Source: Candidatus Aenigmatarchaeota archaeon (GTDB taxonomy: Archaea > Aenigmatarchaeota > Aenigmatarchaeia > CG10238-14 > SCSR01). Taken from it: DNA of 64,000 nucleotides. Each line of letters opens with the position of its first letter. Position 1 is the stretch's first letter. Under the pieces are notes generated by a model. It searched no databases and was not told the origin of the DNA. It was given only the letters and a program-made list of their open reading frames with translations. Positions 9,966-57,136 of the stretch are shown piece after piece. The DNA lies in contig JAWBPV010000002.1 in NCBI GenBank assembly GCA_039000425.1, forward strand, positions 14,303-78,302, in the 5' to 3' direction. Both the position numbers and the translations under genes were made by a program.

Positions 9966-9998
9966 CACCTCCTTTCTTTTTTTCCTTATAACTAAAAT
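9966..9998 (-). promoter_or_regulatory. conserved early promoter/RBS module (instance 3)
   Basis: The minus strand reads TTTAGTTATAAGGAAAAAAAGAAAGGAGGTG. Confidence 0.5.
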
Positions 9999-11962: not shown

Positions 11963-11971
11963 ACTGCTTAT

Positions 11972-11993
11972 CCCTCCTTTTTTATAACTAAAT
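11972..11993 (-). promoter_or_regulatory. conserved early promoter/RBS module (instance 4, short variant)
   Basis: The minus strand reads TTTAGTTATAAAAAAGGAGGG, then 9 nt, then ATG 11962. Confidence 0.45.
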
Positions 11994-12045
11994 TTACCGA
12001 TTAACTTCAGCTACATCTAAAATTTATTCTTTTGAATTAATTTTC

Positions 12046-12579: not shown

Positions 12580-12630
12580 GTCTCACCTCCTCTTATTGAT
12601 TAATTACTCGTTTTAAACTGTTTTTCATTT

Positions 12631-13104: not shown

Positions 13105-13163
13105 ATGTACCTCCCTTCATAACGTTGCTTTAGTAAAATTAAAAATAAAATCAATAGGGAACA

Positions 13164-13694: not shown

Positions 13695-14104
13695 TTGTCT
13701 CCTCCGATGAAATCTCCTTTGATTCTGCTCAGAAAATTCTCAACAAAGGCAAATATCTCATCAATTTTATACACATATTTAGGGTCCTCAATACATTTTC
13801 TTATAAATTCATCATCTGCACCAAATTCAAACGTCTTTTCTTCATCACCATAATGAAACAAAACTTGAAGTCCAAAATGGTCAAGCCAAAGTTCACAATA
13901 ATCATACTCGCTAAATAGAAGCGAATCTATTTCTTTAGTACTATAATCATAAGATTTCAATTTTTCCAAGAATTCAATTGCAATCTCCATTTCGCCAGTA
14001 ATAGTGCCAAAACGTTTATGCAACATATTAATCTTTTTCGAAATAAGATCATCAATTGTCTTTCTCAATTCTACAAGCACATTATTATCAAGGTATTTAT
14101 TCAT
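13682..14104 (-). CDS. tandem paralog family P5 (C-terminally shorter)
   Basis: 140 aa. ...ADDEFIRKCIEDPKYVYKIDEIFAFVENFL. Overlaps P4 and P6 by a few nt, so translationally coupled. Confidence 0.6.
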   Translation of the reverse strand: MNKYLDNNVLVELRKTIDDLISKKINMLHKRFGTITGEMEIAIEFLEKLKSYDYSTKEIDSLLFSEYDYCELWLDHFGLQVLFHYGDEEKTFEFGADDEFIRKCIEDPKYVYKIDEIFAFVENFLSRIKGDFIGGDKWES

Positions 14105-14612
14105 TTTCTCCCTCCGCCAATTTATCTAACAATCTCTGCGAAGCAACCTCTCTAAATACCCGCGTCTTCTTTAATTCATTCATAATCTCGTCTTTAATCC
14201 TCTTTGACGAATTCCTCACTTGAATCAAGAAATTTTCAACAAAATCAAATAGCTCATCCAATTTCCAAACATATTCTGAATTATTGATACATCTTCTTAC
14301 AAATTCATCATCACATTCCAATCGAAATTCTCGCTTGTAATCATTACCATCAATCGCTTGGACAACAAGAGCTCTATCATTCAATTTAAAATCAATCGGT
14401 CTATAGCTCAAAAATAGTTTTGCCGAATCCGTGCGAAATCCTGATAGACTCAATCCTTGCAAAAATGCAATGGCCATATCAGAATCTCCACGAATTAGAC
14501 CAAATCTTTTGTAAAGTAATTCAATCTTCTTTCTAATCAAACTATTCAATTCTTCTTTCAATTCTTCAAATGTTCTACAATCAATTAATTTTGATTTTTG
14601 TTCATTACTCAT
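14097..14612 (-). CDS. tandem paralog family P6 (start revised)
   Basis: The track ORF begins at 14699, but the promoter/RBS module (14617-14641) lies inside that extension. ATG 14612 (MSNEQKSKLIDC...) follows GGGAGC with a 6-nt spacer, giving 171 aa. ...ECDDEFVRRCINNSEYVWKLDELFDFVENFL. Confidence 0.65.
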   Translation of the reverse strand: MSNEQKSKLIDCRTFEELKEELNSLIRKKIELLYKRFGLIRGDSDMAIAFLQGLSLSGFRTDSAKLFLSYRPIDFKLNDRALVVQAIDGNDYKREFRLECDDEFVRRCINNSEYVWKLDELFDFVENFLIQVRNSSKRIKDEIMNELKKTRVFREVASQRLLDKLAEGENE

Positions 14613-14616
14613 GTTA

Positions 14617-14641
14617 GCTCCCTTTTTTTTTCTTATAACAA
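14617..14641 (-). promoter_or_regulatory. conserved early promoter/RBS module (instance 5)
   Basis: The minus strand reads TGTTATAAGAAAAAAAAAGGGAGC. Heads the P6-P5-P4 coupled unit. Confidence 0.45.
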
Positions 14642-14757
14642 GTTTTAATCCGCAAAATAAATTTAGGTAATAATTATTTAAAAACCATGAATTAATCACA
14701 AAAAAACGCTACAAAGCTAAAATAAAGGAAGAGTGAGGCCACTCTCCCTTTTTATTA

Positions 14758-16131
14758 CTAATCCAGATAGATAGTCCAACCGTAAGGCGCAGGCGTCGCC
14801 TTACGATCGGTGCAAATCCACAACACAGGAAATTTAACTTTTTCAATTGGCGGAAACTGATCAATTGCCAAATCAGTAAAGTAGATCAGTGGTCTCAATC
14901 TTGTTGAATTTATATAATCAAATACTTCATTGTAATCAGTCCCTCCTCTTCCATGAATTTTAATTTTTTCACCTTCCAATTTATCTGGGTACTCAATTTT
15001 CGTAATTTTCGCAATTTTTGCATCAGCCTCAATAAGCTCGATAGAATAATCACTAAAGTACTTCAATATGCCATTAATTTCGCTAAATACTTTAACCAAT
15101 TCATCCCGGCTCATTGAACCGGACGTATCTACCGCAATTACAATATCTAACTTTTTATTTCTCAATGTCGGAATGTAAACACCTTCCAACAGCAATTTCT
15201 TATTCGGAAATAACCAATTTATTCTACGTCTCGCAATCTTAGTCAAAAAGTCTCCTAATATTTGTCTCCAATTCAATTTTGGATGCAGAATGTTCTCAAT
15301 TATCTCAACTAATCCTGCGGGAATTTTCCCGCATAACTTCGAATAGGCGAATGCTTCAGCAATCTGCTTTTTCAATTCCTCTTCCAACTTAGCCTTCTCT
15401 CCTTCACTCAATTGCTCCGAGGAATTATGAACATCGGGGTTTTTCCCCGATAAATCGTCTTTTTCAATCTCATATCCTTCAGGAATTCCTTTAATTTTAA
15501 CTTTTCCAATTGTTCCTTCGAAATTTTCCTTTTTAATCGCACCTTCTGAATTTCCCGAAGAAGAATCTGCAGAACTATCCGAAGTTTTCTTAGAATTAGA
15601 AGAATTAGAAAACGAAATTGATTTTTCCAACAACTTATAATATTCCTCCCAGCTCAATCCTTCTGGGAAGCCAAACATAGCTGGTTCAATCCACGAAATC
15701 CCTGGAATGTCTGGAGATTTAAATCCAATACTTTTCAACAAAGAGTTTACTGCTAAATCTTGCGCGATATTCGTCAACGGTGGCTTCGAATAAGCCGCCG
15801 GAATGCGAAAATGCATCAATATCAAATGCAAAATCTCATGCATAATCACATTCATTAAATCTCTTTTGCTTCTCATCAATGAAACAAATATTGGATTTAA
15901 TCTTATAGTTAATGGTTTGAAATCAATTCTCGCTGTTGGAATATCATAATCAAATACTTGAGGAATTGACAATACAAATGACGAAAAGAACGGATAACTT
16001 AATATGATTTCAATCTTAGCCTTTTCCAATCGGTCAATAATTTCAGGCTTAATTCCTTCAATCCTTTCTTTTATTTTCTTCTCAATTTCTTTAAGATCCA
16101 CCTTCATTTTAGTCCCCCATAAATGGATCAT
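14758..16131 (-). CDS. VWA-domain protein with N-terminal HExxH metallopeptidase-like domain (MoxR partner), copy 1
   Basis: 457 aa. HEILHLILMH zinc motif in the N-terminal half. MIDAS motif DIVIAVDTSGSMS in the C-terminal half. Overlaps the start of the downstream AAA+ gene. Confidence 0.75.
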   Translation of the reverse strand: MIHLWGTKMKVDLKEIEKKIKERIEGIKPEIIDRLEKAKIEIILSYPFFSSFVLSIPQVFDYDIPTARIDFKPLTIRLNPIFVSLMRSKRDLMNVIMHEILHLILMHFRIPAAYSKPPLTNIAQDLAVNSLLKSIGFKSPDIPGISWIEPAMFGFPEGLSWEEYYKLLEKSISFSNSSNSKKTSDSSADSSSGNSEGAIKKENFEGTIGKVKIKGIPEGYEIEKDDLSGKNPDVHNSSEQLSEGEKAKLEEELKKQIAEAFAYSKLCGKIPAGLVEIIENILHPKLNWRQILGDFLTKIARRRINWLFPNKKLLLEGVYIPTLRNKKLDIVIAVDTSGSMSRDELVKVFSEINGILKYFSDYSIELIEADAKIAKITKIEYPDKLEGEKIKIHGRGGTDYNEVFDYINSTRLRPLIYFTDLAIDQFPPIEKVKFPVLWICTDRKATPAPYGWTIYLD

Positions 16132-17143
16132 AATAAACTTCTACAATTTTCTCCCAATTCGGAAGTGTTGCAATTTGTTCCTTTATTTTTGCAAAAAGCA
16201 TCCGAATCAAAAACGCGCCGAATTCCTTTTTAGATTCTTTCGCCAAAAATAGAGCATAATCCAGAATTGCCTTATAATGCGCGGGTTTCTCGGCGCGAAT
16301 TACAATAGTAGTGCAAACAGCTGACAATACATCCAATTTATCAATCTCAGGAAATTCTTTTCCATCCAAAATCTTCTCAATATTAGGCAATTCATTGTAA
16401 ACCTTCAAAAATCCTTCAAATTCTGCTGCCGTCGCCGGGCCTACAGAAATCGCCGCGGCTTCATAAGGTGCAATCCCCGCTTTCAACAATTTAGAGCAAA
16501 ATTCCCATGTTCTAGGACATGGGAAGTTAATTGTATTTCGATTTGGAATACTTGTAAATGATGGTTTAAATTTATTGAATGCAAGAATTCTTGGATCAAA
16601 CCCTTTCTCAATTGCGTATTCAACAAATTCATCAAATGAAAATTGTATCTCAAAATGGTTAAATCTGCTGATAATGGCTTCACTCAATTCGGCAACATAC
16701 GGGACATCCTCCCGCCTGTTGCCGGCGGCAAATATATACCAATTATCTCCTAATTTGTGTTCTCCAATTACTCTATCTAACACCAATTGTTGCGATGCTT
16801 TCAATACTTCCTCATTTGCTAAATTAAATTCGTCTAAGAACAAAATACCCTTTCCTGAATCAGGCAAATTGTTGGGCCGATACCATCCGGCCTTTTCTCC
16901 TTTAACGAGAAAAGGTCCTCTCAAATCAATAATGTCGCAACTCGCCAATCTCAAATCAATCCAACTAATTCCCAATTCTTCAGCCAATTGCCTTACGGCC
17001 GAGGTCTTCCCAATCCCCACTGGTCCCCAGAGAAAAATCGCATTTGCCTCTGGGGCCGAAAATGTTTTTAAATAATTCTTCGCAATACTTTTAAATTTCT
17101 TAATTGAACATCGCAATCCGTAAATCCGTTCCGTGACCTTCAC
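16109..17143 (-). CDS. MoxR-like AAA+ ATPase (AAA_5/CbbQ-NorQ type), copy 1 (GTG start)
   Basis: Walker A LWGPVGIGKTS and Walker B ILFLDEFNLANEEVL. The track start 17191 lies upstream of the promoter/RBS module (17156-17180). An in-frame GTG at 17143 follows GGAGG. Confidence 0.8.
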   Translation of the reverse strand: MKVTERIYGLRCSIKKFKSIAKNYLKTFSAPEANAIFLWGPVGIGKTSAVRQLAEELGISWIDLRLASCDIIDLRGPFLVKGEKAGWYRPNNLPDSGKGILFLDEFNLANEEVLKASQQLVLDRVIGEHKLGDNWYIFAAGNRREDVPYVAELSEAIISRFNHFEIQFSFDEFVEYAIEKGFDPRILAFNKFKPSFTSIPNRNTINFPCPRTWEFCSKLLKAGIAPYEAAAISVGPATAAEFEGFLKVYNELPNIEKILDGKEFPEIDKLDVLSAVCTTIVIRAEKPAHYKAILDYALFLAKESKKEFGAFLIRMLFAKIKEQIATLPNWEKIVEVYYDPFMGD

Positions 17144-17155
17144 TATAGTTTTAAC

Positions 17156-17180
17156 CTCCTTTTCTTTTCTTATAACTTTT
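17156..17180 (-). promoter_or_regulatory. conserved early promoter/RBS module (instance 6)
   Basis: The minus strand reads AAAAGTTATAAGAAAAGAAAAGGAGG. Confidence 0.45.
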
Positions 17181-17235
17181 CTAACGCACATTTTTTTGTC
17201 ACGGAAAAACGGCTAGCTAAAAATTAATTAATTTA

Positions 17236-17873: not shown

Positions 17874-19793
17874 TTAGATTTTTATTTCCTTATAGTTCTG
17901 CATATAATCCTTACTCCATACCATGCCAATTTTTGTCTCAAGAGTGAATGGTATAGGGATGTTGATTTCGTATTTTAGCAATAATTTTCTGAATTCCTTT
18001 GCCAGTTCATCAAGTCTTGCGAACACTTCATCAAGTGCATCCTGTTTAACTTCAAATAATACCGAATCGTGCACGGAATTGACAATTCTTAATTTGGTTC
18101 CAAGCATCTCCTCGGGGAGATTGAAGAGAACGAAAACTAGGAATGAAAGGAAAAAGTCGGAAAGACTGGACTGCACCGGGAAATTGTATACTTGTTTTGC
18201 AATATCAAAATCTATGTTGATGAACTTTAGGATGCTAAAATTCCTGCGTCGTCCAAACAAGGAATCAATGAAATGATTTTTTTCAACAAATTCACAAATT
18301 CGTCGTTTAAAAACTTCTATAATTGGCAATTGTTTATTATAAGCATCAATAATCTTCTCGGCCGTAGATAGTTGAATCTTTACGCCATGTTTGGTGAGTG
18401 CTTCCATAAGTCCACTTGCGCTTGCCCCATAGAGGATTGCGAATGTTGCGGTTTTTGCAATTTGTCTTTCTTTATCACTAATTTCGGACATCGGCTTACG
18501 AAAAATACGGCTCGCTACCCACCGATGAAAATCGGAACTTTTGAGCACGGAAAGCGTTTCGGCATCCCCGCTCAACACCCCAAACATTAGCGCTTCTGCA
18601 CGCTGCACATCCATTTCCATGAAAACATATCCATCTTCACTGCGAAAAATCCTTCGTAAATCTTCGGGAATGTTCTGAAGATTCGGATTACTGCTGGAAA
18701 GTCTTCCACTTACCGTGCCCGTCTGATGGAAGGTTGAATGTATTCTATCGTGGGGAAATTTTGAATAAGGATTGAGATAGGTAGAGAGTTCTTTCTCAAT
18801 TTGTCGGTATTTGAGGAGCAGTTTCGCTTCTACAGTTTTTGATTTGTTGAGAAATGCGGCATCGGCGGAAAGCTTGTGCTTCAGTGGTTTTTCACGCAGA
18901 ACTTTGAAGAAAAGAATATGAACATCCTGGTTTGAATTTGGATTAAATGGGGGCAATTCGGTGACATTTTTGCCCTTCTTTTTCATCTGCTCAAGCTTGT
19001 ATTCTCGGGCAATCTTCACCGATTTCAAAGAGTTAAATTTCTTGAGAATCCTTTCCTTTTCCCGTTCACGCTGAAGAATCAAATTAAATATTTCCTCTTT
19101 GTCTATTTTAATGCCATTATGTTCAAGCTCTTCAAGGAGGAATGGCAATTTATTTACAAGCTCATTCTCAAGAAAATCAAACGTTCCACGTGGAACACAC
19201 TCACGATAAATCATGTAAAGCTCATAAGTTAAAAAGCAATCAAGGAAATTATAAATTATACTTTTCGCTTGATTAGTGCTAAAACTCTTCGCTACATCAT
19301 TAAAGTCAATCAATGTGGAATAATCGTCTGAAAGCCCAAATATACGTGCAAAGTCCTTAAGCCCATAAGTGCTAGAGTCCTCTATTAAAATGTGCATAAG
19401 TGCCATAGTGTCTTTGAATTTAACTTTCTTTAAAATTCCAAATGGTATTCCCAGAATCCTACGCATAACTTTGATTTCAAATTTGGCATTATGAGCAACT
19501 ATTTCTATATTTGGAACTTGGAAAATTGAAACCAAAACATTCTTTAGTTCTTCAGCGCCAATCAGGTCTCTATACAAAAACACATATAATCCCGGAAGAT
19601 AAATCCCACAACAAACTATATCTTCGAGCAACCGCGGATTATAAGAAGTAGTTTCAAAATCAATAGACACAATGCGTTCCTCCTCGGGTGCCTCTTCCAG
19701 AACTTCCTTCAAAACATCGCCAAATCCGGCATTCATAGGCGCCACACATAACGTGTCATCAATCGCCTTCTTTACATGTTCATGCAACCACAT
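17874..19793 (-). CDS. polA: family A DNA polymerase with 3'-5' exonuclease domain (phage Pol I type)
   Basis: Exo I IVSIDFETTS. Motif A DVQRAEALMFGVLSGD (cf. DYSQIELRxLAHLSGD). Motif B RQIAKTATFAILYG. NFPVQSSLSD. Motif C VHDSVLFEV. Confidence 0.9.
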   Translation of the reverse strand: MWLHEHVKKAIDDTLCVAPMNAGFGDVLKEVLEEAPEEERIVSIDFETTSYNPRLLEDIVCCGIYLPGLYVFLYRDLIGAEELKNVLVSIFQVPNIEIVAHNAKFEIKVMRRILGIPFGILKKVKFKDTMALMHILIEDSSTYGLKDFARIFGLSDDYSTLIDFNDVAKSFSTNQAKSIIYNFLDCFLTYELYMIYRECVPRGTFDFLENELVNKLPFLLEELEHNGIKIDKEEIFNLILQREREKERILKKFNSLKSVKIAREYKLEQMKKKGKNVTELPPFNPNSNQDVHILFFKVLREKPLKHKLSADAAFLNKSKTVEAKLLLKYRQIEKELSTYLNPYSKFPHDRIHSTFHQTGTVSGRLSSSNPNLQNIPEDLRRIFRSEDGYVFMEMDVQRAEALMFGVLSGDAETLSVLKSSDFHRWVASRIFRKPMSEISDKERQIAKTATFAILYGASASGLMEALTKHGVKIQLSTAEKIIDAYNKQLPIIEVFKRRICEFVEKNHFIDSLFGRRRNFSILKFINIDFDIAKQVYNFPVQSSLSDFFLSFLVFVLFNLPEEMLGTKLRIVNSVHDSVLFEVKQDALDEVFARLDELAKEFRKLLLKYEINIPIPFTLETKIGMVWSKDYMQNYKEIKI

Positions 19794-30948: not shown

Positions 30949-31303
30949 TGTTTTTTAGTTTGTCTGAAATTACTTTTAAATTGTCTTTAACTACTGTTTC
31001 TTCAACCAGTTTTGCGCCTTTTTTCCCAATCCAAATTAAAACTGGAGCCATTTCCAGCTCCGGAGACGCTCTTGAGCAAAAGACTATAGCTAATTTATTC
31101 TCGCCTGGAATAGACGTAATCCATGCTATATCGGAATAGTTTAAATCTTTTAAAAGAAAATCAATAAGATACAATTTGACACGATATACGCTTTCTGAGC
31201 CATCAAAAGATTTGCAAATAACCGTTCCTTCTGGATTTTCATTTGAATTATACAGTTGAATTGTTGTTTCGATAATATTTCTTATTTCAGTTTCCGTCCA
31301 CAT
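30932..31303 (-). CDS. hypothetical protein
   Basis: 123-aa ORF. Confidence 0.45.
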   Translation of the reverse strand: MWTETEIRNIIETTIQLYNSNENPEGTVICKSFDGSESVYRVKLYLIDFLLKDLNYSDIAWITSIPGENKLAIVFCSRASPELEMAPVLIWIGKKGAKLVEETVVKDNLKVISDKLKNNDSWH

Positions 31304-32573
31304 CCATCACCTCCTCTAGCGGTATTACCGTGCCAAATGGCACGTCTTTTTTGTCTGAGGTTGCAATCCATAATACCGGAATTGTTGGAGCGACTTCGCC
31401 AAAATCCGCTTCGAGGTCGCTTACAAATACCACGGCGTGCGCTTCAGCATGACGTTTCACAATTTCAGGAAGACTCTTGAATACTGTTCCTCCTCGGCCA
31501 CGTATTTTGATATTTCTGAAGTCAGGTTTCTCATTTTCCAGCTTCTCATAAAAGGTTTTTTGTGCGTCCATTTGATAATGATGTACAACAAAATTGGGAA
31601 ATGAATCAAGAATGTCTGCAAGCAAACCGTATGCGAAAGCCAATTCTTTCTCTTCCATACTTCCTGAGGTGTCTACAATGAATATTATATTTAGCTGTTT
31701 ATCCCTGAAGAAATTGTGCAACATACCTGTAAAATTGCTTCTTTTGGTCCATGTCAGCATTGCATTTCTTTGAATAATAAAATCGCAAAATTCTCCTAGA
31801 ATCGCTTCAACGTTAATCCTTGGTCTGAGAATTTCTTTTAGCAGTTCTTCAAGCATACCCGGACAGGTTCCTTGCTGTTTTAAACGTTGCGAAAATTGCA
31901 CAAGTGCAATAAATGTTCCCGAACATGCTTGAGAATTAGAATCGCTTGATAAATTTGGCACTTCTAAATGGTCCTTTGGAGTAAAGATGTTATTTCCATT
32001 TAGGACTAAAAACACTCTTCCCTGCGAATCAACCACTACAAAAGAATTTCCCATTTGTTTCGTTTTATATTTTCTTTTCAACTTTTCATAAACTTCTTCG
32101 ACCGAACAATTATCATAGCTGCGATCATGCACTTCTGGATATAATTCAAAAGGTTCAATTTCCGATTTTCCATCTCTTTGGAATGCTGGCAATTCGGAAA
32201 ATTTCACACAGATTTTGTCTACCACAATGTCCATAGCCATTGCCCATAATGGATCCATAAAAATCTTTTTCAATTTTGAACGAAATCCATGAAATAGTGC
32301 TATGTGAAGCAGTTCATGCAATAAAAGATATGCAACTTTCGCTTTGGCACGCTGTTTTTCAAATTTATTTATATACTCGGGATTGCATTCAACAACCATT
32401 TGTCCATGTTCAAGATGCACGGAAGCAATTGGAGGTGCAAAAGTTCCCGAAATAATTGCATCTAAAGCTAAATCTTCTTTTGAATACAGTTTAATGATCA
32501 TTCCTGCAATATCTCCAGCGAATTCGGGCAAAAGACGAATCAATGAAGTTTTTGCTATACTTATTATCTTCAT
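31287..32573 (-). CDS. VWA-domain protein with HExxH metallopeptidase-like N-domain (MoxR partner), copy 2
   Basis: 428 aa. LLHELLHIALFHGF and MIDAS motif IIFIVDTSGSMEEKE. Same architecture as 14758..16131 but divergent sequence. Confidence 0.75.
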   Translation of the reverse strand: MKIISIAKTSLIRLLPEFAGDIAGMIIKLYSKEDLALDAIISGTFAPPIASVHLEHGQMVVECNPEYINKFEKQRAKAKVAYLLLHELLHIALFHGFRSKLKKIFMDPLWAMAMDIVVDKICVKFSELPAFQRDGKSEIEPFELYPEVHDRSYDNCSVEEVYEKLKRKYKTKQMGNSFVVVDSQGRVFLVLNGNNIFTPKDHLEVPNLSSDSNSQACSGTFIALVQFSQRLKQQGTCPGMLEELLKEILRPRINVEAILGEFCDFIIQRNAMLTWTKRSNFTGMLHNFFRDKQLNIIFIVDTSGSMEEKELAFAYGLLADILDSFPNFVVHHYQMDAQKTFYEKLENEKPDFRNIKIRGRGGTVFKSLPEIVKRHAEAHAVVFVSDLEADFGEVAPTIPVLWIATSDKKDVPFGTVIPLEEVMDVDGN

Positions 32574-33694
32574 GTTTTTATGTCTAACAGTTCAAGCACA
32601 TCTTTCAACTTTTTATTATCAATTATATGCCAGAACTTTTCCATGGGCAGCTTTCTGTAAACGAGAATACTCAGTCCGAACACCATCAGTTCTTTTGGTG
32701 GGATTGTGGTTTTTTCATCCCATTTCGTCCATGCTATTTTATGCATTACATCTACTGCGTTTTTTAAGGCTTTAATGTCATTCAGAGGGGCATTCTGAGC
32801 AATTGCAGATACAGCGATGACTGCTTGTCTGGAATTGGCTATATTTGGCACAATTCCCTTTGTATAAACTGCATTCAAATCCAGCATCATCTTTAGAGCA
32901 TCATTCTGTATGAAAGCTTCAAATTGTGTGCCTGCACTGATCCCCACAGTAGAAGAAAATACGGCAAGACGTACTTCGGGATTTAGTTTCATTGCATGCC
33001 CAAGATCTCTGCTAAGCATTTCCCAAGCACGTGGACATGGAAAAGGCATTTCTGGATTTAATTTTGCATAGTCATAATTTGCAAAGTAAGAAGGATAGAG
33101 CTTCAGGAAGCTGATAATTTCCGATGCTATATTATTTGGAACAGCAAAGTTCTTTACCCAAGTATCGAAATCGGGATGAACATGGATAATTCTGAATCTG
33201 CTTCTCAAAGGTTCGGACAGCTGATGAACAAATGCGAAAGTCTTTTTGGAATTGCCTGCGGCAACAATCATATAGTTTTCGCCTAACTTATGCGGTCCAA
33301 TTGTTCTTGTGTAAACTAGCTGTAATGCTGCATTCAGAACTTCTTTAGTTGCACAATTCAGCTCATCCAGAAAAAGAATGCCTCTTTCAACATTGTTGGT
33401 TGGAAACAAATCTTCGGACGGTTTAAACCATTCAACCTGTTTTTTCTCAAAAATAGGAACTGCAAAACCTCTTAAATCGGAAGGATCTATTATCAAATGG
33501 AGAGGCGCTATTACCAATTTTGCATTAAATTCGTCGGCAAGTTGCTGAACAATTGCAGTTTTACCAACGCCTGGAGGACCATAAATGAAGCAAGCAGCTT
33601 TGCTAATTCCTTTCCAGAAATTAACCATATTGAATCTTAACCATTCCTTTGCTATCGCTATATTTACGCTATATTCCTGGGCTGTTTCAGTCAT
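32570..33694 (-). CDS. MoxR-like AAA+ ATPase, copy 2
   Basis: Walker A IYGPPGVGKTA and Walker B ILFLDELNCATKEVL. Overlaps the VWA gene (ATGA). Confidence 0.8.
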   Translation of the reverse strand: MTETAQEYSVNIAIAKEWLRFNMVNFWKGISKAACFIYGPPGVGKTAIVQQLADEFNAKLVIAPLHLIIDPSDLRGFAVPIFEKKQVEWFKPSEDLFPTNNVERGILFLDELNCATKEVLNAALQLVYTRTIGPHKLGENYMIVAAGNSKKTFAFVHQLSEPLRSRFRIIHVHPDFDTWVKNFAVPNNIASEIISFLKLYPSYFANYDYAKLNPEMPFPCPRAWEMLSRDLGHAMKLNPEVRLAVFSSTVGISAGTQFEAFIQNDALKMMLDLNAVYTKGIVPNIANSRQAVIAVSAIAQNAPLNDIKALKNAVDVMHKIAWTKWDEKTTIPPKELMVFGLSILVYRKLPMEKFWHIIDNKKLKDVLELLDIKT

Positions 33695-34547: not shown

Positions 34548-34703
34548 TTATTTTGGTGATGATTTTCTTTTTATCCATCTCAGCACCACATACGCGGTGA
34601 TAGCGCATCCTGCAATAACCATAATAACTCTTACAAATTTAAACGCAATTGCAGATAAAAATAAAATTACTGCAATGATTAACCATTTTGTAGTATCACT
34701 CAT
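34548..34703 (-). CDS. small membrane protein (51 aa)
   Basis: ATG 34703 sits 5 nt after GGAGG within the conserved module 34709-34733 (MSDTTKWLIIAVILFLSAIAFKF...). The alternative track ORF 34249..34608 in another frame is less well supported. Confidence 0.4.
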   Translation of the reverse strand: MSDTTKWLIIAVILFLSAIAFKFVRVIMVIAGCAITAYVVLRWIKRKSSPK

Positions 34704-34708
34704 AGCTA

Positions 34709-34733
34709 ACCTCCTTTTTTCTCTTATAACTAA
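34709..34733 (-). promoter_or_regulatory. conserved early promoter/RBS module (instance 7)
   Basis: The minus strand reads TTTAGTTATAAGAGAAAAAAGGAGG. Confidence 0.45.
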
Positions 34734-34746: not shown

Positions 34747-35220
34747 TTAGGATTCCCGAATCGCTCTCCGAAGAATCACCACGTAAGGTACCGTATAAGA
34801 GGCTGCCGATAACAGAAAAGCTGGAATTCCCTTTAGTGGAGAGAATCCCAGCCTTTTCATAATAGGAAACGCTCTTAAAGAAGCCATATATTCCTCGAGC
34901 AAAGTAGGGGTCATAAGTATAGGTAGATATTTTTCATATTCTTCCTTTCCTGTAATTTTTAGGACTGGATAACCGATTATTCCCGCATGAAATAATAGAG
35001 GAAAAGGAATATGTTTTTCAATTGGACGAAGGAAACTTCGAGCATGCCCAAATTCGTGAGCAGCTACAAATGCAGTAAAAGGTCCTCTGATGCGGGGAAT
35101 TTCAATTATATGTCGTGTTGGGTCATAGGCCGCTTCAAGCGGTTCCTTTACATATACTATCTTTGGCCACTTGGCAAGCCTGCGTTCTCTTAGTAATCTT
35201 GCAGCTAAACTTAATCGCAT
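34747..35220 (-). CDS. putative zinc metallopeptidase (HEFGH motif)
   Basis: 157 aa. ...FVAAHEFGHARSF... Confidence 0.5.
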   Translation of the reverse strand: MRLSLAARLLRERRLAKWPKIVYVKEPLEAAYDPTRHIIEIPRIRGPFTAFVAAHEFGHARSFLRPIEKHIPFPLLFHAGIIGYPVLKITGKEEYEKYLPILMTPTLLEEYMASLRAFPIMKRLGFSPLKGIPAFLLSAASYTVPYVVILRRAIRES

Positions 35221-35684
35221 GAGTAAAATACCACTGCACTAAGAACACAAGTGTATAATTTTGAAGAAGTTTTTGTTGTTGCGATTTTATAAAAACGTTG
35301 CTTGGGAAGCTTTCGGTTGTTAATCCTAAATATTTCATTTAGGCAATATTTCAATCGACGAAAGCACTCTTTACTATTCATTGCACCTTCCACTTCCACG
35401 ATATAACCATGTTGTTTTGGACTTTCCGCGAGCATAATTCCCGCTGAGATATAAAAAGGATTTTTGGTGGGTTTTTCAATGTGCTTACTCAATACGCAAA
35501 ATAGAATCTCCCCACCAGGCAAAGCGTTAAGTTCGTCAATATTTCCGCGCTTACAATCAGCAGGCAAAATACTCGAAACGGGAACAAGATTAAATTTATT
35601 TATCTTTGCGTTTTTTAGAGCTAATTCAAATGCAATTAAAGGTTCTTTTGATCTGCCTATTCCCGAAGATAAGATATATTTCAC
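35211..35684 (-). CDS. pdaD: pyruvoyl-dependent arginine decarboxylase proenzyme (PdaD family)
   Basis: 157 aa. PLIAFELALKNAKINKFNLVPVSSILP parallels the M. jannaschii PdaD block [27 protein letters not shown], including the Ser-Ser self-cleavage site. Confidence 0.7.
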   Translation of the reverse strand: MKYILSSGIGRSKEPLIAFELALKNAKINKFNLVPVSSILPADCKRGNIDELNALPGGEILFCVLSKHIEKPTKNPFYISAGIMLAESPKQHGYIVEVEGAMNSKECFRRLKYCLNEIFRINNRKLPKQRFYKIATTKTSSKLYTCVLSAVVFYSCD

Positions 35685-35685: not shown

Positions 35686-36360
35686 TCAACGTCTTCGTAA
35701 TTTTGTCAATAATTCATTCAATTTTGCCAATGCAGAATATATAGCAGAATATGCATATGGAGAACTTAGAGCTCCTGCAACCGCACCTAGAATCAGAGGG
35801 AGCTTTCTATAACGAAATACTAAAGTTGGAGCCCTTCCAATACCAGCTCGAATAGGAACAACTTGAGGAGACATTAATCCTCGAGCAATCAATGCTCCAA
35901 GTCCCGCTCGCGTGCCAATATGGAACGCAGGATATATATATGCAATTAAAGGCTGTCTAGGAGCTTCATCTTTATCTTTAGCTCTTCCTTCTTTAATAGA
36001 TGATTCCTTTGCATGGGCAGAAGATTTACCTTCAGAAGATTTGTCTTTAGAAGGTTCCTTTTTAAAGAATTCTGCCAAATATTTTCTAACGGATGGTACT
36101 GCTAAAGTTCCTGCAAGTCCTCCAACAATTAACGGCCAATAAGGATAGCGCAATATTGGCTGGGCTCCCCGAAGCATTTGCCAACGTGTTGGCATCAGAA
36201 CTTGTGGACCCACCAATCCCCGCATTGCCAAAGCGCCCGCAACTGGATAAGCATAGGGAAGATATGTATGGAACGTTCTCAGGCCACTTATAATCTTCTG
36301 AAGTACTTCTACCCAATCTGGTGTTTTTTGCGCTTGAGCTATTTTTAATAAGTGAGTCAT
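35686..36360 (-). CDS. glycine-zipper repeat protein (two copies of a ~60-aa GALxxRGLxxP...LRYP.WPL..GG module)
   Basis: 224 aa. The module occurs at residues ~35-95 and ~150-215. Paralogous to the repeat modules in 36376..37437. Confidence 0.55.
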   Translation of the reverse strand: MTHLLKIAQAQKTPDWVEVLQKIISGLRTFHTYLPYAYPVAGALAMRGLVGPQVLMPTRWQMLRGAQPILRYPYWPLIVGGLAGTLAVPSVRKYLAEFFKKEPSKDKSSEGKSSAHAKESSIKEGRAKDKDEAPRQPLIAYIYPAFHIGTRAGLGALIARGLMSPQVVPIRAGIGRAPTLVFRYRKLPLILGAVAGALSSPYAYSAIYSALAKLNELLTKLRRR

Positions 36361-36375
36361 ATCAAACCTCCCTAT

Positions 36376-37437
36376 TTATTTTGGTCTGAACCAAGGATAA
36401 TACAATCCACCAAGAATCAAAGCTGCTTGCACCTCAGGAAGAAGCAAAGCGCCTAAAGTTGCACCTAAGAGCATAGGTAACTTTCTATAACGAAGTCTTA
36501 TAGGCTCAAATCTTCCTCTAGGAATAACTACAGTAGGACGAGTAAATCCTCTTGCAATTAAAGCTCCCATAGTAGGATATGCTATTATGCGAAGCATGTC
36601 CCGAGCTGCTTCGCTGGAGGCAGGCATGCTAGATCCTTTCCAAAGAATTCCTCTTCTTTCTAAAATTTCTCCTAGTCCTCTTACACGCGTGCCCAATCCA
36701 TAGATACCACGGCCAAGAAGTCTCAAAACTTTTTGCTTAAAAGTGGGAGGAGGGGGAGGAGGAGCTGGAGTCATATATCCTTCTACTGGAGTAAAAGGCC
36801 CTCCTGCCAAAAATTCCAACTCTTTAAGTGTTTCTTCAGAGGGTAATGGAGCAGCTCCAGGTGGCAAAGCTATTTCTGCAGGAGGTGGGGGAGGAGGTGG
36901 AGGAGGTTCTACCGCTGCAGGAGGTGGAGGAGGCGCTACAGCCGCAGGAGGAGGCTCTACCACTGCAGGAGGTGGAGGAGGAGGCGCTACAACTGCAGGA
37001 GGCGGAGGAGGCGCTACAGCCGCAGGAGGAGGCTCTACCACTGCAGGAGGTGGAGGCGGAGGCGACGGTGCTGCTTCTGGCGGAGTTGGACGTTCGAAAA
37101 GCCCTTTTACTAATCTTTTAATTCCGGGAACAACTCCAGGAACAAACAAAGTTCCGAGAGCTCCTCCAACTAGAAGAGGCCAGATTGGATATCTCAACGT
37201 GGGGCGCATTCCACGTAGTAATTGCAAACGTGTTGGCATTACTAGCCTGGGACCAACCAAGCCTCTTAGCGCTAAAGCACCTATGGCAGGACTGAAATAT
37301 GGAAGGGCTTGATAAAATTCCCGCAAAAAAGGAGGAGGTGTAGGAGGAATAGGAGGAGGTGGAGGTGGCGGTTTTTTCTTCTTACCAAAAATGAATTCCC
37401 ACACGTTTTCAAGGAATCCTATTTTCGTTACATCCAT
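36376..37437 (-). CDS. proline-rich protein with two glycine-zipper modules and a central (PPPPAVVEPPPAAVA)n repeat
   Basis: 353 aa. N-terminus KKKKPPPPPPPIPPTPPP. Central ~70 aa are almost pure P/A/V/E. The module pair flanks the repeat. Confidence 0.6.
   Translation of the reverse strand: MDVTKIGFLENVWEFIFGKKKKPPPPPPPIPPTPPPFLREFYQALPYFSPAIGALALRGLVGPRLVMPTRLQLLRGMRPTLRYPIWPLLVGGALGTLFVPGVVPGIKRLVKGLFERPTPPEAAPSPPPPPPAVVEPPPAAVAPPPPPAVVAPPPPPPAVVEPPPAAVAPPPPPAAVEPPPPPPPPPAEIALPPGAAPLPSEETLKELEFLAGGPFTPVEGYMTPAPPPPPPTFKQKVLRLLGRGIYGLGTRVRGLGEILERRGILWKGSSMPASSEAARDMLRIIAYPTMGALIARGFTRPTVVIPRGRFEPIRLRYRKLPMLLGATLGALLLPEVQAALILGGLYYPWFRPK
36880..37095. repeat. GC-rich tandem repeat (78-nt higher-order unit duplicated) encoding the poly-Pro/Ala tract
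   Basis: gcgctacagccgcaggaggaggctctaccactgcaggaggtggagg... at 36933 recurs at 37011. About 60% GC within a ~35% GC genome. Confidence 0.6.
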
Positions 37438-37568
37438 CTTGCACCTCCGTTAAATTATCTGTTTAAATATTATCAGAATGTACCATTTTTAATCAATTTT
37501 TAACATTGCTTTATTGATTTCACAAAAATATGTTAAAATAAATAACGACAAAATTGGAGGTTAGAATA

Positions 37569-37860: not shown

Positions 37861-39276
37861 ATGACATTTTTAGTTCTAGGAAGCGGAGCTGATATACAAT
37901 TGCTGAAACAATTAAGAGATGAAGGAAACAAAGTTTACTATTGGCTTCCTCAGAAATTTTGGTCGGAATGGGATGAATTGTTTAAAGAATGGGAGGTTAA
38001 TTGGATAAAAGAATCCGAATTAAGAATTCCACATGACGTTGATATTGTCGTATACACTTTTGTTGGAGCTAGAGAACTAGCTGATAAAGTTTCCAAAAAT
38101 TATCCTTTCTTTGGAGCGGACAGCCGCATGCAAGAATTAGAGCTAAATCGTGAGCTGGGCAAAAAAGTGATGCAAAAATTAGGAATAAAAATTCCTCGAC
38201 GTTTCTCAAGCAACATAGATGTTGCAATAGAAACAATAAAACGAAACAAAAAGCCTATGGTTGTAAAGCCTTATAATAATCTCCCAGTATACACAACGGC
38301 TGTTCCATTTACCTATGAGGATTCAATTGTTATCTTAGAAAAAATTAAAAAGCATTTTCCAAATGCAACTGTACTTTGTGAAGAAAAAATAAACGGAGTT
38401 GAAGTTGGAATTGAAACATTTTTTGATGGAGAAGATTTTCTCTACCCAATTAACGTCAGTTTCGAGCATAAACCCGCCTATGAGCTGGATCAGGGGCCTT
38501 TGACTGGCGAAACTGGAACTTTAATGTTTTATGAAAACAGTCCATTATTCTATGAAACTCTGAATAGAGCTAAAGAATTGTTCAGGAGACTAAATTATCA
38601 TGGAGATATTTGCATTGGGCTGATTGTAGATATGGAGACGAAGATTCCTTACGGATTGGAATGGACTTGTCGTATGGGATATCCTGAGATTCTGATTCAA
38701 ATCAACGCTCTTAAGATAGAATTGGGACAGCTTATTTATAACACAGTATTTCCACAGCCCCAAAAAGAAATGCCGGTAGATGATATTTTTCTCACAGGCG
38801 TCGCTTTAATGGGGGGAGGTTCTCCCTTTGAAATGACTTATAAGCAATATGGGCGTGGATTTATGATTCATGGATTGGATGAACTTGAGGATGGTATACC
38901 AGTCATTAGTAGAACAATGATAGCTTCTGCTTCTTATAAAAATGGTAAATTCTTCACAGGCGAATATGATGATCGTCCATTGGTTATAATTGGCAAAGGA
39001 TATACTGCTTATGAAAGTATTATAGATGCCTATAGGTTCATGCGTCACGTTAAATGCATGAATGCTTTTTATAGAACCGACATTGGAGTCAAATATGTCA
39101 CACACGATTCAAAGTTCCTCTACGAATGTGCGTACATAAACAGAGATCACTTTGTAAGGAGTTATTTGCCCGAGTTTGATCCAAGATTAACTCTATTGAA
39201 AACAAAAATTATGGAAATAAAAAAAGAAGGAGGCTTGAAAGAATGGTTAATTGGAAATGCTCTATTCCGATCTTAA
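37861..39276 (+). CDS. PurD-like (glycinamide ribonucleotide synthetase-like) ATP-grasp ligase with C-terminal extension
   Basis: LVLGSGADIQL N-terminus. EEKINGVEVGIETFFDG...EHKPAYELDQGPLTGETGTL (cf. the PurD DHKR...GPNTGGMGA block). GLIVDMETKIPYGLEWTCRMGYPE (cf. EFNCRFGDPE). Confidence 0.65.
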   Translation: MTFLVLGSGADIQLLKQLRDEGNKVYYWLPQKFWSEWDELFKEWEVNWIKESELRIPHDVDIVVYTFVGARELADKVSKNYPFFGADSRMQELELNRELGKKVMQKLGIKIPRRFSSNIDVAIETIKRNKKPMVVKPYNNLPVYTTAVPFTYEDSIVILEKIKKHFPNATVLCEEKINGVEVGIETFFDGEDFLYPINVSFEHKPAYELDQGPLTGETGTLMFYENSPLFYETLNRAKELFRRLNYHGDICIGLIVDMETKIPYGLEWTCRMGYPEILIQINALKIELGQLIYNTVFPQPQKEMPVDDIFLTGVALMGGGSPFEMTYKQYGRGFMIHGLDELEDGIPVISRTMIASASYKNGKFFTGEYDDRPLVIIGKGYTAYESIIDAYRFMRHVKCMNAFYRTDIGVKYVTHDSKFLYECAYINRDHFVRSYLPEFDPRLTLLKTKIMEIKKEGGLKEWLIGNALFRS

Positions 39277-39340: not shown

Positions 39341-41131
39341 ATGGAAACTCTAATTTATAAAACAACTCCTATCGTGTTTTTCAACGAACATGCGGTCAAA
39401 AATGTAGTAAGTGTAACTGTAACTTATCAGATTAATCGTTTCGCTCGAGCAATTATAGCTTTACCTGCAGTATCCGCACTACTTGATCTACCATTTTTGA
39501 CACATATTCGTGTTGGGGCCAAAATTGAAACAGGAAAAGGTTCCTGGGACATCTGGCTCGTTGATGGATTTCCCGAACAAATTGTCAAACGAGATCCGTA
39601 TGTTTTCATAACAATAGTAGATAAACATTACATTTTAGACACTATTCCTTTAATAGGATTAGAAGATCCTATGCGAGCTGCAGTCATGAGTTCTATTTAT
39701 GGAGATGGAATAATTAACATTGCATTACCTGGTGCTTCTTCCATAAACCAATGGCTTAATTGCTCCGACTGGGTATCTTCACAAGACATGACAGTACAAT
39801 TTAAAGAATTGGTCGAAGAACGCATAACCAACTATCTTTCTGATTTTATTAAAACACATCAAATATATGGCCTTTACCCTTTCATAGATCCAGCAATTGA
39901 TAGAAATTTTTTGGATGCTCAATTATCTCTAAATGTGATAAATAGGCTCAATGTTTTCTCGGGGGATTCAGTCTGGACTCTTATACGACAGGTTATTACA
40001 ACTCTGACGGGTTATCAGTTTATACCTATTCCAATCAAGATGTTAGGAATAGAAGAAAGCGCAAAAGGAATGTCTGCTGTAATTTATTGCTCACTGATAA
40101 CCTTTCCAGTTACCACAGGAGCAACTCCAAAAACGCAAGTTGTCCCTCTTCATTTTTACAACTATTCTTTTTCTGCAGATAAAACTCGTAATGTTACAAG
40201 AATGGTTCTATATAATTTTGTAGGAATGCCTTTACCCTCTACATCGGAAGATATATCATCGGGAACTGAATCATCAGGATGGTTTCTATTAGTGCCTAGA
40301 GAGCTTCACAACGGATTCAAAGGGGAAGTTCAAGCGTCAAGAGAAGAACAAATATGTGTTCCAATTATATACAAAACAATGACATATGAAGAAGTTTGCG
40401 ATGGGATTATCACGGACATATCGTCAATAGATCTCCCACTATACAACGTCTATCAGGTTCACTCCAGTGAAAGTCCTTTGAAAGGACAGGATCTGGAAAA
40501 AACAATGCAATTATGTCTGGACAAGGCCGAGTTAGAGTTTAAACTTAAGAAACTCCAGTTTCGGACATTAACGTTGCGAGGTATTTTTTCTCCTTTTCTG
40601 GTTTGTGGAATGCCTCTAATTGCAGTAGAAAAAAGACAACCTTTAAGTTTCTTTCAGGGAATTCCTTTTCAAATTATTCATGAAATTAGTGATAGAGGTG
40701 CAGTTTCAACAATTGATTGTGGCTATGCTTACTATTGGGAAGAGTTTTCCGAGAAAACTTCACGAGGACTTCCTGGACGGTTTGCGGTTTTCCCTTGGGG
40801 AAATCTGTCAACAGATGAAAAATTGATATTACCACGTACTACAGTGAAAAGCTGGAATGATTTTGTAAAGACTATTTTAGGCACAGATTGCTTGTCAAAA
40901 AATGTAAAGGAAGTAATTGAATATTTAAAAAGCATTTTAAGCATTTCGCTTGAAGGTTTTTTTGGCAGATGCGCAAACTTCGCAAAGACGATAGGAATCG
41001 CAGATAGGCATAAATTTAGCGAATCACAAGTAAAAATTGTTGATGTACCATTAAATGCAAAACCGAGACAAGAGCTGGTCAAAAATATTGTGAACTTATT
41101 GAATGCAGCGGAGATTATAGAACTAAAATGA
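39341..41131 (+). CDS. hypothetical large protein (possible virion component)
   Basis: 596-aa ORF. No recognised motif. Confidence 0.55.
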   Translation: METLIYKTTPIVFFNEHAVKNVVSVTVTYQINRFARAIIALPAVSALLDLPFLTHIRVGAKIETGKGSWDIWLVDGFPEQIVKRDPYVFITIVDKHYILDTIPLIGLEDPMRAAVMSSIYGDGIINIALPGASSINQWLNCSDWVSSQDMTVQFKELVEERITNYLSDFIKTHQIYGLYPFIDPAIDRNFLDAQLSLNVINRLNVFSGDSVWTLIRQVITTLTGYQFIPIPIKMLGIEESAKGMSAVIYCSLITFPVTTGATPKTQVVPLHFYNYSFSADKTRNVTRMVLYNFVGMPLPSTSEDISSGTESSGWFLLVPRELHNGFKGEVQASREEQICVPIIYKTMTYEEVCDGIITDISSIDLPLYNVYQVHSSESPLKGQDLEKTMQLCLDKAELEFKLKKLQFRTLTLRGIFSPFLVCGMPLIAVEKRQPLSFFQGIPFQIIHEISDRGAVSTIDCGYAYYWEEFSEKTSRGLPGRFAVFPWGNLSTDEKLILPRTTVKSWNDFVKTILGTDCLSKNVKEVIEYLKSILSISLEGFFGRCANFAKTIGIADRHKFSESQVKIVDVPLNAKPRQELVKNIVNLLNAAEIIELK

Positions 41132-41904
41132 CATTGCCGAAACAGGAAAAAGAATTATTGCTATGGAAAGAATGGCGTCGTACAGGAGACGAAGAAAAAC
41201 TGGAAGAGTTGATGAACAGCTTACGTCCTCTCATAATGACTGCAGTGAACAAATGGAAAGGAAATCTTCCTCAAGATATTTTAACTTTTCAAGCAGAAAA
41301 TTTAGCACTAAAAGCATTACATACTTACGATCCAAAGAAAAAAGTTGCTCTTTCTACGCATGTTATGAATAATTTGTTGCCATTGTCTCGTTTTGTATAT
41401 ACACATCAGAACATTGGAAGAATTCCTTCAGAAGTGCGTATTGCAAAAATAAATACACTAAAAACGGCAATTGAGGAGTTTCAGGCTAAATATGGTAGAT
41501 ATCCAAATGCCGAAGAACTTTCTGATACCCTAGGCATGTCCCCCAAGCAAATTCAGAAGTTTTTCAAAGAATTGCATCCCGACTTATTGGAATCCTATGC
41601 GATTGCCCCTATTGCTGTAAAAATGGATCCTCAAACTGAGATGATTGTAGATCAATTCTACTCGTCATTGTCGCCAATTGATAAGTTCATTTTTGAGCAT
41701 TCCGTGGGCTATAAAAACAAGAAAAAGTTAACTATACGGGAAATTGCCACTAAATTAAATAAAAGTACCTATGAAGTTCTACAACGAAGAGAGGAAATAG
41801 CTCGCAAACTTTCAGAATTTATAGAACAGTATGAAAAAGCTGGGATTTCATTTGAAAGAAAACGAATATCCGCTTCAATTGAATCGCTACTGGAGGAAGA
41901 ATGA
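41128..41904 (+). CDS. sigma-70 family RNA polymerase sigma factor (phage-encoded)
   Basis: Region 2-like LRPLIMTAVNKWKGNLPQDILTFQAENLALKALHTYDPKKKVALSTH. Region 3-like RYPNAEELSDTLGMSPKQIQKF. Region 4 HTH LTIREIATKLNKSTYEVLQRREEIARKL. Confidence 0.7.
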   Translation: MTLPKQEKELLLWKEWRRTGDEEKLEELMNSLRPLIMTAVNKWKGNLPQDILTFQAENLALKALHTYDPKKKVALSTHVMNNLLPLSRFVYTHQNIGRIPSEVRIAKINTLKTAIEEFQAKYGRYPNAEELSDTLGMSPKQIQKFFKELHPDLLESYAIAPIAVKMDPQTEMIVDQFYSSLSPIDKFIFEHSVGYKNKKKLTIREIATKLNKSTYEVLQRREEIARKLSEFIEQYEKAGISFERKRISASIESLLEEE

Positions 41905-56506: not shown

Positions 56507-57136
56507 ATGTCCATTGAAAAATTGCTGGAAAAACCAGATCTTACTCCCATTGCACTCAACGAAATTCTAAATCGTGTTTACAATACCGAATGGATTATAA
56601 CGCCTATTCATCCTTTGATTTTGCATATAGAACGCATATTTAATATTAAACTTCCTCAAGAAAACATAGACAAAATTGGAGCTATAAAGGTATTGCTTAA
56701 CAATGATAGCTTTTGGGATCACTGGCATATATTTGAAAAGGTTGGAGTTGCATTCAACGATCATATAGTCCGCACGGATATAATGCAGCCTCTTCAAGCA
56801 TGCGAAGCAATATATACGTTTAAAACGTCCAGGTATTTCCGAAAAGAAAAATTTTCCGATGAAGTTATAGTTTATGCATATTTCTGTTGCCTTGAAGACA
56901 ATTGTATTCTTCCCGATTTAGAATTCATAGAAATGGTTCCCGAAAAGATGTATGCTCCTTTTAGCAATATTCTTAATGAGCTAAAAAAGCATGTAAAACA
57001 CTTGCAAAAACTGGCGGATGTTAATAAACTACCAGAAGAAATGCGAGCTCAGGCAATTGAATACTTGAAAGTGCAGACCTATTTAGCTCTAAAAGAAAAC
57101 GCTACAAAGGAGCAAATAAATGCCATCAATACCTGA
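56507..57136 (+). CDS. hypothetical protein
   Basis: 209-aa ORF. Confidence 0.5.
   Translation: MSIEKLLEKPDLTPIALNEILNRVYNTEWIITPIHPLILHIERIFNIKLPQENIDKIGAIKVLLNNDSFWDHWHIFEKVGVAFNDHIVRTDIMQPLQACEAIYTFKTSRYFRKEKFSDEVIVYAYFCCLEDNCILPDLEFIEMVPEKMYAPFSNILNELKKHVKHLQKLADVNKLPEEMRAQAIEYLKVQTYLALKENATKEQINAINT

Follow-up and report, generated by a model that had tools for sequence, protein, structure and literature searches.

Paralogous orphan proteins with a predicted helical-hairpin module and spacers of different length in a contig binned with Candidatus Aenigmatarchaeota

The described systems that lie closest to the two proteins considered here are the glycine-zipper and GxxxG hairpin proteins, TonB, the spanins of bacteriophages and the linkers of the E2 component of 2-oxoacid dehydrogenases. 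In TonB the repeats are of the Glu-Pro and Lys-Pro type, and the width of the periplasm is close to ~23 nm. Some ejection proteins are basic and carry hydrophobic hairpins, in which they resemble the pair described below. A glycine zipper, according to the criterion of Kim et al., is a hydrophobic helix in which (G/A/S)xxxGxxxG or GxxxGxxx(G/S/T) is conserved. Here we describe two adjacent genes, A and B, found in a stretch of 64,000 nucleotides of contig JAWBPV010000002.1 (positions 14,303 to 78,302; hereafter the window). Judged from their sequences, they are lineage-specific paralogues that have been kept under selection, that share a new module and that differ in what lies between their module copies, B having what seems to be a Pro-rich spacer grown by slippage.

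Both genes, and all the parts of them given in this paragraph, are on the minus strand. Gene B (36376-37437) encodes 353 amino acids (aa) and gene A (35686-36360) encodes 224. A preliminary description had reported two paralogous genes at this place, and both open reading frames (ORFs) are indeed found there; exact matches to B and A exist as NCBI entries MEM5852968.1 and MEM5852967.1, respectively, from a 113,831-bp contig, some 50 kb of it beyond the window, of a metagenome-assembled genome (MAG) labelled Candidatus Aenigmatarchaeota. Read from its N- to its C-terminus, B comprises an amphipathic helix, a K4-P7-IPPTPPP tract (aa 19-36, 37330-37383), module N (aa 38-110, 37108-37326), a Pro/Ala/Val/Glu spacer of 74 residues (aa 117-190, 36868-37089), a non-repetitive middle region of 84 aa (aa 191-274, 36616-36867) and module C (aa 275-353, 36379-36615). 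The K4-P7 tract had been placed between the modules in the preliminary description; it actually stands ahead of the first of them. The middle region, which holds a P6 run and a Gly/Arg-rich stretch, is without counterpart in A, where the order is module N (aa 27-95, 36076-36282), a 40-aa Lys/Ser/Glu-rich linker, module C (aa 136-210, 35731-35955) and a basic C-terminus. Both proteins have a pI of 10.4, with net charges of +17 for B, which is 23.8% Pro, and +21 for A, and the charge per module is +7 to +8 in each. Arg makes up 7.1-7.6% of their residues, as compared with 4.6% Arg and 7.2% Lys in reference genes.

The two copies of the module that had been noticed in each protein can be aligned as four related sequences of ~65 aa with 17 invariant columns (P13, G16, A17, L18, R21, G22, P26, P31, R33, R38, R45, Y46, P50, G54, G58, L60 and P63), such that the idea of a four-module protein set is upheld; the example peptides quoted for it were also found verbatim. 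Arg is invariant at four positions of every module. The glycine-zipper label under which the module was introduced comes down to one GxxxG (G54, G58) that is kept in all four modules; the third small residue of a zipper is present in module C of A only (GAVAGALSS), and the full three-glycine zipper is not invariant. In BLASTP comparisons identity between the N-modules of A and B is 65% across 65 aa (E 2e-24) and that between their C-modules 42% (E 2e-5), conservation therefore being stronger in the N-modules, and an N-module compared with a C-module gives 34% identity (E 6e-5). Since N- and C-modules share only ~35% of their residues, as against the higher values for like modules of the two proteins, the internal duplication is likely to be old and to have come before the duplication of the gene. 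The module motif occurs in no other ORF of the 64-kb window.

A and B are real genes and evolve under purifying selection, as is evident from their Shine-Dalgarno (SD) sites, their operon spacing, the pattern of divergence between them and the open frame through the spacer. The SD sequence of B, GGAGGT (37443-37448, minus strand), and that of A, GGGAGGT (36366-36372, minus strand), both stand 5 nt ahead of an ATG, the latter inside the gap of 15 nt that follows the B stop codon, and the next gene begins 1 nt past the stop codon of A. In the paralogous N-modules the proportion of synonymous differences (pS) is 0.75 and hence saturated, as against a proportion of non-synonymous differences (pN) of 0.28, and identity at the three codon positions is 0.63/0.74/0.40. 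Moreover, the minus-strand frame runs open through the spacer and joins two modules, both of them homologous to A; nothing else speaks as strongly for translation of the spacer as poly-Pro/Ala, and no indication that the Pro-rich ORF stays untranslated, an outcome that the preliminary description had named as fatal to its interpretation, was seen. It is hardly credible, therefore, that the ORFs are spurious or decaying, with the Pro-rich frame an accident of a GC-rich repeat or with the antisense poly-Gly ORF (36743-37312, plus strand) as the true gene. That ORF is long (189 aa) and its third-position GC, at 0.247, is also low, so GC at third positions alone cannot separate the two frames. Nevertheless, it is the minus-strand frame that connects two A-homologous modules without a stop codon, non-synonymous divergence is well below synonymous, the strong SD sites and the operon spacing favour translation, and a poly-Gly ORF is the mirror image expected from a CCN-rich coding sequence. 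Homology and selection favour B over its antisense counterpart.

The spacer of B contains 41 Pro, 16 Ala, 9 Val and 5 Glu and has a net charge of -4. It is composed of PPPPAVVE and PPPAAVA units with up to nine consecutive prolines, gene B as a whole having ten runs of three or more, and it would reach ~23 nm if it were a polyproline-II helix throughout. Part of the spacer is encoded by a 78-nt tandem DNA repeat (36890-37064, without strand), for which Tandem Repeats Finder gives 91% matches and 2.2 copies, the latter being the count in the assembled sequence. The two full copies differ at only 4 of their 78 nt, in the form of two synonymous differences and one Val-to-Ala codon, from which it follows that the duplication of the unit is recent; the rod was in this way probably lengthened recently through slippage of the 78-nt unit. 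An independent assembly, from another run (L001), which is 99.9% identical to the window, ends at 36955, within the repeat, and a further one (L002) stops at 36472, before it, neither of them having a single-nucleotide polymorphism in A or B. The break in L001 is the usual behaviour of short-k assembly at a repeat and is no evidence for copy-number variation.

This region had also been singled out as a sharp compositional anomaly. GC does reach a maximum of 0.655 (36900-37099), as against 0.359 for the whole window, and the 78-nt repeat is present as claimed, but the anomaly is a trivial one. Over aa 113-192, which include the spacer, GC at the three codon positions is 0.94/0.76/0.225, compared with means of 0.45/0.34/0.29 in 24 reference genes (0.29 +/- 0.05 at position 3), and CCT predominates among the Pro codons of the spacer. 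In other words, the third position is as AT-rich as the genome, and the GC peak is therefore a product of amino-acid composition (Pro being CCN and Ala GCN); a foreign origin of the segment is ruled out by its third-position GC of 0.225.

Searches of sequence and structure collections bear out the earlier impression that the module belongs to no described family and that A and B are not recognisable enzymes. With Pfam-A (hmmscan, E <= 1), no family was found for A and just a spurious PUA_2 match (E 0.36) for B; the Pfam glycine-zipper families (Gly-zipper_Omp, Gly-zipper_OmpA, Gly-zipper_YMGG and Rick_17kDa_Anti/2TM) gave no match at the same threshold. Neither protein was assigned to a family in PHROGs, NCBIfam or PADLOC, the Pro-rich region of B having a compositional match to GltJ (E 0.031; 13 bits, the cut-off being 450), and a defence or anti-defence role was set aside on the absence of a PADLOC match. 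PDB sequences, queried with the module profile and with B, gave no match, and the best BFVD hit found with Foldseek has E 1.3, with no virion protein of that library matched. Of the known families that the preliminary description had thought might claim the module, pilins and pseudopilins are not indicated, there being no N_methyl or pilin Pfam match and no class III signal peptide (G/FTLIE) at the N-termini of the pair, MTHLLKIAQAQK and MDVTKIGFLENVWEF; nor are PE/PPE-like proteins, for which there is neither a Pfam match nor a relative among the protein representatives searched as follows. The profile search that had been proposed was run with HMMER, the four-module profile being compared with 1.84 billion representatives of ~15 billion proteins, and returned A (E 1.7e-61) and B (E 1.4e-56) as the only members of the family. 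Three other weak matches, each in several stretches, were rejected as relatives: P0004 is an actinobacterial LGFP-repeat protein and P0005 a repeat-derived ORF, and P0003 is a repeat protein of 6313 aa with ten short stretches, which was dismissed on its match pattern alone; in all three the stretches cover just 19-32 profile positions. DNA-level pattern scans for the module in IMG/VR, GTDB species representatives and JGI metagenomes gave no relative, and tblastn against 50,697 phage records gave no match to the pair. A word-index homology search with A returned A alone; it carries little weight because it missed the paralogue B too. The overall picture from these collections is that of a module family apparently confined to this element.

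A predicted fold of the module is shown by an AlphaFold2 model of aa 27-99 of A, for which the alignment of the four paralogous modules was the input. The model has a mean pLDDT of 80.6 and a pTM of 0.52, with no residue below 50, and it has helices at 2-23, 33-37, 49-60 and 63-72 and strands at 27-29 and 43-45. Of the five invariant prolines, all but P13, which is within helix 1, are at or next to boundaries of predicted elements, and the GALAxRG and GxxxG motifs sit in two long predicted helices. As a prediction, this fits a hairpin that is packed via small residues and closed by an Arg-rich loop. The module would accordingly be read as a helical hairpin: a first helix would end in GALAxRG, an Arg-rich loop that includes a small beta-hairpin would come next, and a Gly-rich hydrophobic helix (PLxxGxxxGxL) with prolines at its bounds would complete it, the two helices packing through Gly and Ala. 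Each protein would have four such helices, with aromatic and Arg residues at the interfaces, and the hairpins may insert into or rest on the cytoplasmic membrane of the host and form homo- or hetero-oligomers. The segment between the hairpins would then be a variable spacer, which in A is a charged and probably disordered linker of 40 aa and in B a Pro/Ala/Val/Glu rod of up to ~23 nm, followed by the 84-aa extra region.

On this basis we tentatively prefer to regard A and B as membrane-associated helical-hairpin proteins with variable spacers, at somewhat less than even confidence, because the evidence for a membrane is mixed. The membrane location, the oligomerisation and any part in infection are inferences; what that part might be is a guess, perhaps an envelope-directed one such as membrane remodelling, exclusion, or an accessory function in entry or lysis. 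In favour of the membrane proposal, the maxima of the 19-residue Kyte-Doolittle profile in B are 1.85 and 1.71, the additive Hessa scores of the best segments fall between those of a clear two-transmembrane (TM) neighbour and of soluble controls, and the neighbourhood lends support, in that the genes just downstream encode a 51-aa protein with two TM helices and a Zn-peptidase-like protein whose tail is hydrophobic.

Several observations weigh against it. The AlphaFold2 model was built on just four paralogous sequences, and that of full-length A, from a single sequence, has a pLDDT of 46.7 and is unusable. The Kyte-Doolittle maximum of A is only 1.38, and the best segments of A and B have additive Hessa scores of +4 to +5 kcal/mol, none of them near the score of a clear TM helix (the 51-aa two-TM neighbour is at +0.4 and soluble controls are at +6.6 to +8.2); these two scales were the measure of membrane propensity. 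The strictly apolar stretches, at 12-14 residues and flanked by Pro, Tyr/Trp and Arg, are short for a bilayer. Loops and termini are all basic, so that the positive-inside rule is not cleanly met by either topology. Finally, the sequences of A and B have no signal peptide, and the searches returned no homologues of them.

The main rival to the membrane-hairpin proposal, which we regard as an unlikely though serious one, would make A and B soluble, strongly basic proteins that oligomerise or bind nucleic acid, for example to condense a genome, to act as a scaffold or to form condensates, the Arg-rich beta-loops touching DNA or RNA, the hydrophobic helices providing the core of an oligomer and the linkers being disordered. 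Such a role accords with the pI of 10.4, with the net charge of +17 to +21 and of +7 to +8 per module, with the four Arg that are invariant in each module even though the AT-rich genome otherwise favours Lys, and with a hydrophobicity under that of clear TM helices. However, many ORFs of this proteome have a pI above 10, so that a high value is common here; the searches made linked neither protein to a family or fold with known binding to DNA or RNA; and stretches such as WPLLVGGALGTLFVPGVVPGI are more apolar than is usual in a soluble domain of 70 residues. The preliminary description had seen a likeness to periplasm-spanning or capsid-internal ejection or tether proteins. If the proteins were of the virion-internal kind, their hairpins would enter the host envelope on injection and the rod of B would be a spacer. 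The element is phage-like, its host has peptidoglycan and the spacer could reach the length given above, all of which would suit this idea, but we consider it improbable: the pair stands at the head of a leftward unit whose further genes are of metabolic and replication type (ArgDC, RNase HII, MoxR/VWA and RuvC), and transcription of that unit diverges from the rightward block of large orphans, the likeliest structural module; no virion protein was matched in PHROGs or BFVD; and the structural module itself could not be anchored, capsid, portal and terminase genes being unrecognisable.

An envelope-spanning device, of the kind represented by TonB or a unimolecular spanin, is slightly more doubtful again. 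In such a device one hairpin of B would be in the inner membrane, the rod would reach through the periplasm and bring the second module to the cell wall or to the outer membrane, should the host have one, and A would be a partner with a short linker. The spanning or tethering role is physically possible in so far as the spacer could reach ~23 nm as a polyproline-II helix, which is near the width of the periplasm; the spacer, being acidic, could be translocated, whereas the loops are basic, and there is the compositional match to GltJ. Set against these points are the absence of a lipobox and of a signal peptide at both N-termini, the absence of any match to a TonB_C or spanin family, and the fact that both modules of B are of the same kind, with no specialisation for two different membranes. 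Moreover, the pair is 27 kb from the M15 peptidase gene and 34 kb from that of the lytic transglycosylase (SLT), and so is not part of a lysis cassette. Least probable among the envelope roles, and a long shot in our estimation, is that the hairpin is a new membrane fold of one divergent phage lineage in which B serves as a ruler or tether of ~20 nm between membranes or envelope layers. Under that proposal the inner and outer membranes, or cell and virion, would be spanned, A would again be the short-linker partner, and the repeat-driven length of the rod would tune the spacing.

In the genome, the pair forms the first leftward genes from an AT-rich divergent intergenic region of 116 nt. This contains a sigma-70-like promoter candidate, TTGATT-16-GATAAT (37469-37496, minus strand), which matches the consensus, although matches of this kind are not above chance frequency in the region. 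Downstream of A, and also on the minus strand, is a gene for a pyruvoyl-dependent arginine decarboxylase (35211-35684; PF01862, E 1.5e-32), whose start is the one lying 1 nt after the A stop, followed by that for the Zn-peptidase-like protein with an HEFGH motif (34747-35220), which has 157 aa, a hydrophobic C-terminal half and a weak PF04298 match (E 0.0037, under the Pfam cut-off). These two may form a single four-gene unit with B and A. In the product of the 51-aa ORF (34548-34703, minus strand) two TM helices are clear and the C-terminus is basic; the ORF is holin-like in form and sits just past the unit, far from the murein hydrolase genes. Characterised viral pyruvoyl arginine decarboxylases derive from AdoMetDC (PMC9992855). 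The occurrence in a phage-like element of an enzyme of the M. jannaschii type, adjoining a gene rich in PPP, may be a coincidence or may have to do with needs for polyamines and in translation. Further leftward are genes for RNase HII, a MoxR AAA ATPase, a DUF2201 VWA-metallopeptidase and RuvC. On the rightward side, divergent from B, are a GARS-like ATP-grasp gene (37861-39276, plus strand), which has no close relative in viral contigs, a 596-aa orphan, whose only relatives found are >99%-identical copies, a sigma-70-like protein and the block of large orphans, outside which the pair lies.

A short motif, TTAGTTATAA, recurs in the window. Allowing up to one mismatch, it occurs 34 times as against 10.4 +/- 3.1 expected, with exact copies at 923-932 (plus strand) and at 9676-9685, 9986-9995, 11982-11991 and 34724-34733 (all minus), the last of these being between the Zn-peptidase-like gene and the 51-aa ORF. 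Its usual place is ~10-12 nt ahead of a strong SD belonging to a leftward gene, and it looks like a -10-type promoter specific to the element, possibly read by the sigma-like factor that the element encodes. The region upstream of A and B has the sigma-70-like -35/-10 in place of TTAGTTATAA.

It is almost certain that the contig as a whole, binned with Aenigmatarchaeota in three MAGs, has been mis-binned, and that it is a bacteriophage-like element whose bacterial host has peptidoglycan. This identity, judged from gene content, is based on two enzymes that cut murein, namely the SLT lytic transglycosylase (1051-1536, minus strand; E 2e-14) and Peptidase_M15_3 (8490-9017, minus strand; E 1e-19), on a sigma-70-like protein (41128-41904, plus strand; Pfam E 1.2e-7, PHROG E 4.5e-13) and on a family A DNA polymerase (17874-19793, minus strand; E 4e-62); an archaeal host is ruled out by the murein hydrolases and the sigma-70-like gene. 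The element also has UDG and RuvC genes, frequent strong SD sites and the -10-like motif, with no tRNA gene in the window and no housekeeping gene among the ORFs scanned. As a lineage of orphans it appears to be unusually deep: no sequenced phage has a polymerase more than ~27% identical to that of the element, and the rightward block of large genes (39341-63892, plus strand; 596, 566, 526, 476, 332, 1293, 448, 931 and 890 aa) has no match in Pfam, PHROGs or PDB sequences, relaxed thresholds included. Capsid, portal and terminase genes were found neither by Pfam and PHROGs at E <= 1 nor among PDB sequences. The 931-aa ORF of the block (57120-59915, plus strand) contains an intein (Intein_splicing, aa 418-694, with a LAGLIDADG domain); a terminase identity for it was rejected, since the PHROG match is inside the intein and is lost when the extein is searched by itself. 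A Pro-rich tail forms the end of the extein.

Two separate pairs of a MoxR-type AAA ATPase and a DUF2201 (VWA-like metallopeptidase) gene are present (14758-17191 and 31287-33694, both minus strand), and a sister contig (L006) has an orthologous pair at 41-45% identity. Six tandem paralogous ORFs (11414-14699, minus strand; 182, 177, 157, 176, 140 and 200 aa) have a common N-terminal motif, F(V/I)DN..L..L..EI..LI..R...L...FG.ISG, and no Pfam family. A TnpB with a Cas12f-like TNB domain (10266-11357, plus strand) has relatives at 60-65% identity, which occur in distant sister elements of 96 kb (ENA ERZ27247228 k141_1104550) and 121 kb (IMG 3300009503 Ga0123519_10000133) that share with the window, in addition, one to four gene families at 29-45%. 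The module is absent from the sister elements examined. The long contigs with TnpB relatives (L005-L008) are ORFan-dense and virus-like, and the dataset of the 121-kb contig among them, IMG 3300009503, is listed beside others credited to hot-spring researchers (PMC9599585). These likenesses hint that the large elements may belong to one family, with the TnpB transposon passing between its members. Two variant contigs (L003 and L004) end before reaching A and B.

Should the hairpin model and the membrane location be true, the module would represent a new sequence family of small-residue-packed helical hairpins, and the pair would offer a natural length series, from the charged 40-aa linker of A to the linker of ~170 aa with its polyproline rod in B, and with it a compact system in which to see how the length of a spacer between membrane anchors affects function. 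The larger value of the analysis is corrective, in that the GC spike is not horizontally acquired and the 'Aenigmatarchaeota' contig is, in all likelihood, bacteriophage-like. Nearly all other genes of the element are orphans, every candidate structural gene included. A and B are thus one orphan pair among many in the genome, and in this context they are moderately remarkable rather than exceptional.

It remains to set the pair beside the systems mentioned at the outset. As for the glycine-zipper and GxxxG hairpin proteins (SlyB, Gly-zipper_2TM, PsaK, Mgr2/Romo1 and Tim17/22), no Pfam glycine-zipper family gave a sequence match to A or B at E <= 1; in comparison with these families A and B have one invariant GxxxG and shorter, marginally hydrophobic stretches, and the Arg-rich loop with its beta-hairpin and the invariant prolines of the module are without counterpart there. 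With TonB, B shares a hydrophobic N-terminal region, a long Pro-rich spacer, a C-terminal domain and a length that could cross the periplasm. Its spacer, however, is made of PPPPAVVE/PPPAAVA units and not of Glu-Pro or Lys-Pro repeats, its C-terminal part repeats the hairpin module, and its N-terminus is an amphipathic helix followed by K4 instead of a TM helix bearing SHLS; no TonB_C or other TonB model of Pfam or NCBIfam was matched by A or B, and the ORFs scanned include no ExbB/ExbD partners. The spanins (Rz/Rz1, and gp11 of T1) are likewise phage-encoded, with hydrophobic anchors, Pro-rich segments and a possible span of the envelope, whereas A and B have no lipoprotein signal, no coiled-coil periplasmic domain and no PHROG match, and are not beside the endolysin-type genes (M15 at 8490-9017, SLT at 1051-1536). 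The linkers of 2-oxoacid dehydrogenase E2 are similarly extended, Ala/Pro-rich and slightly acidic, lie between folded modules and are of slippage-prone length; in B, by contrast, the spacer has up to nine consecutive prolines and connects orphan hairpin modules in place of enzyme domains.

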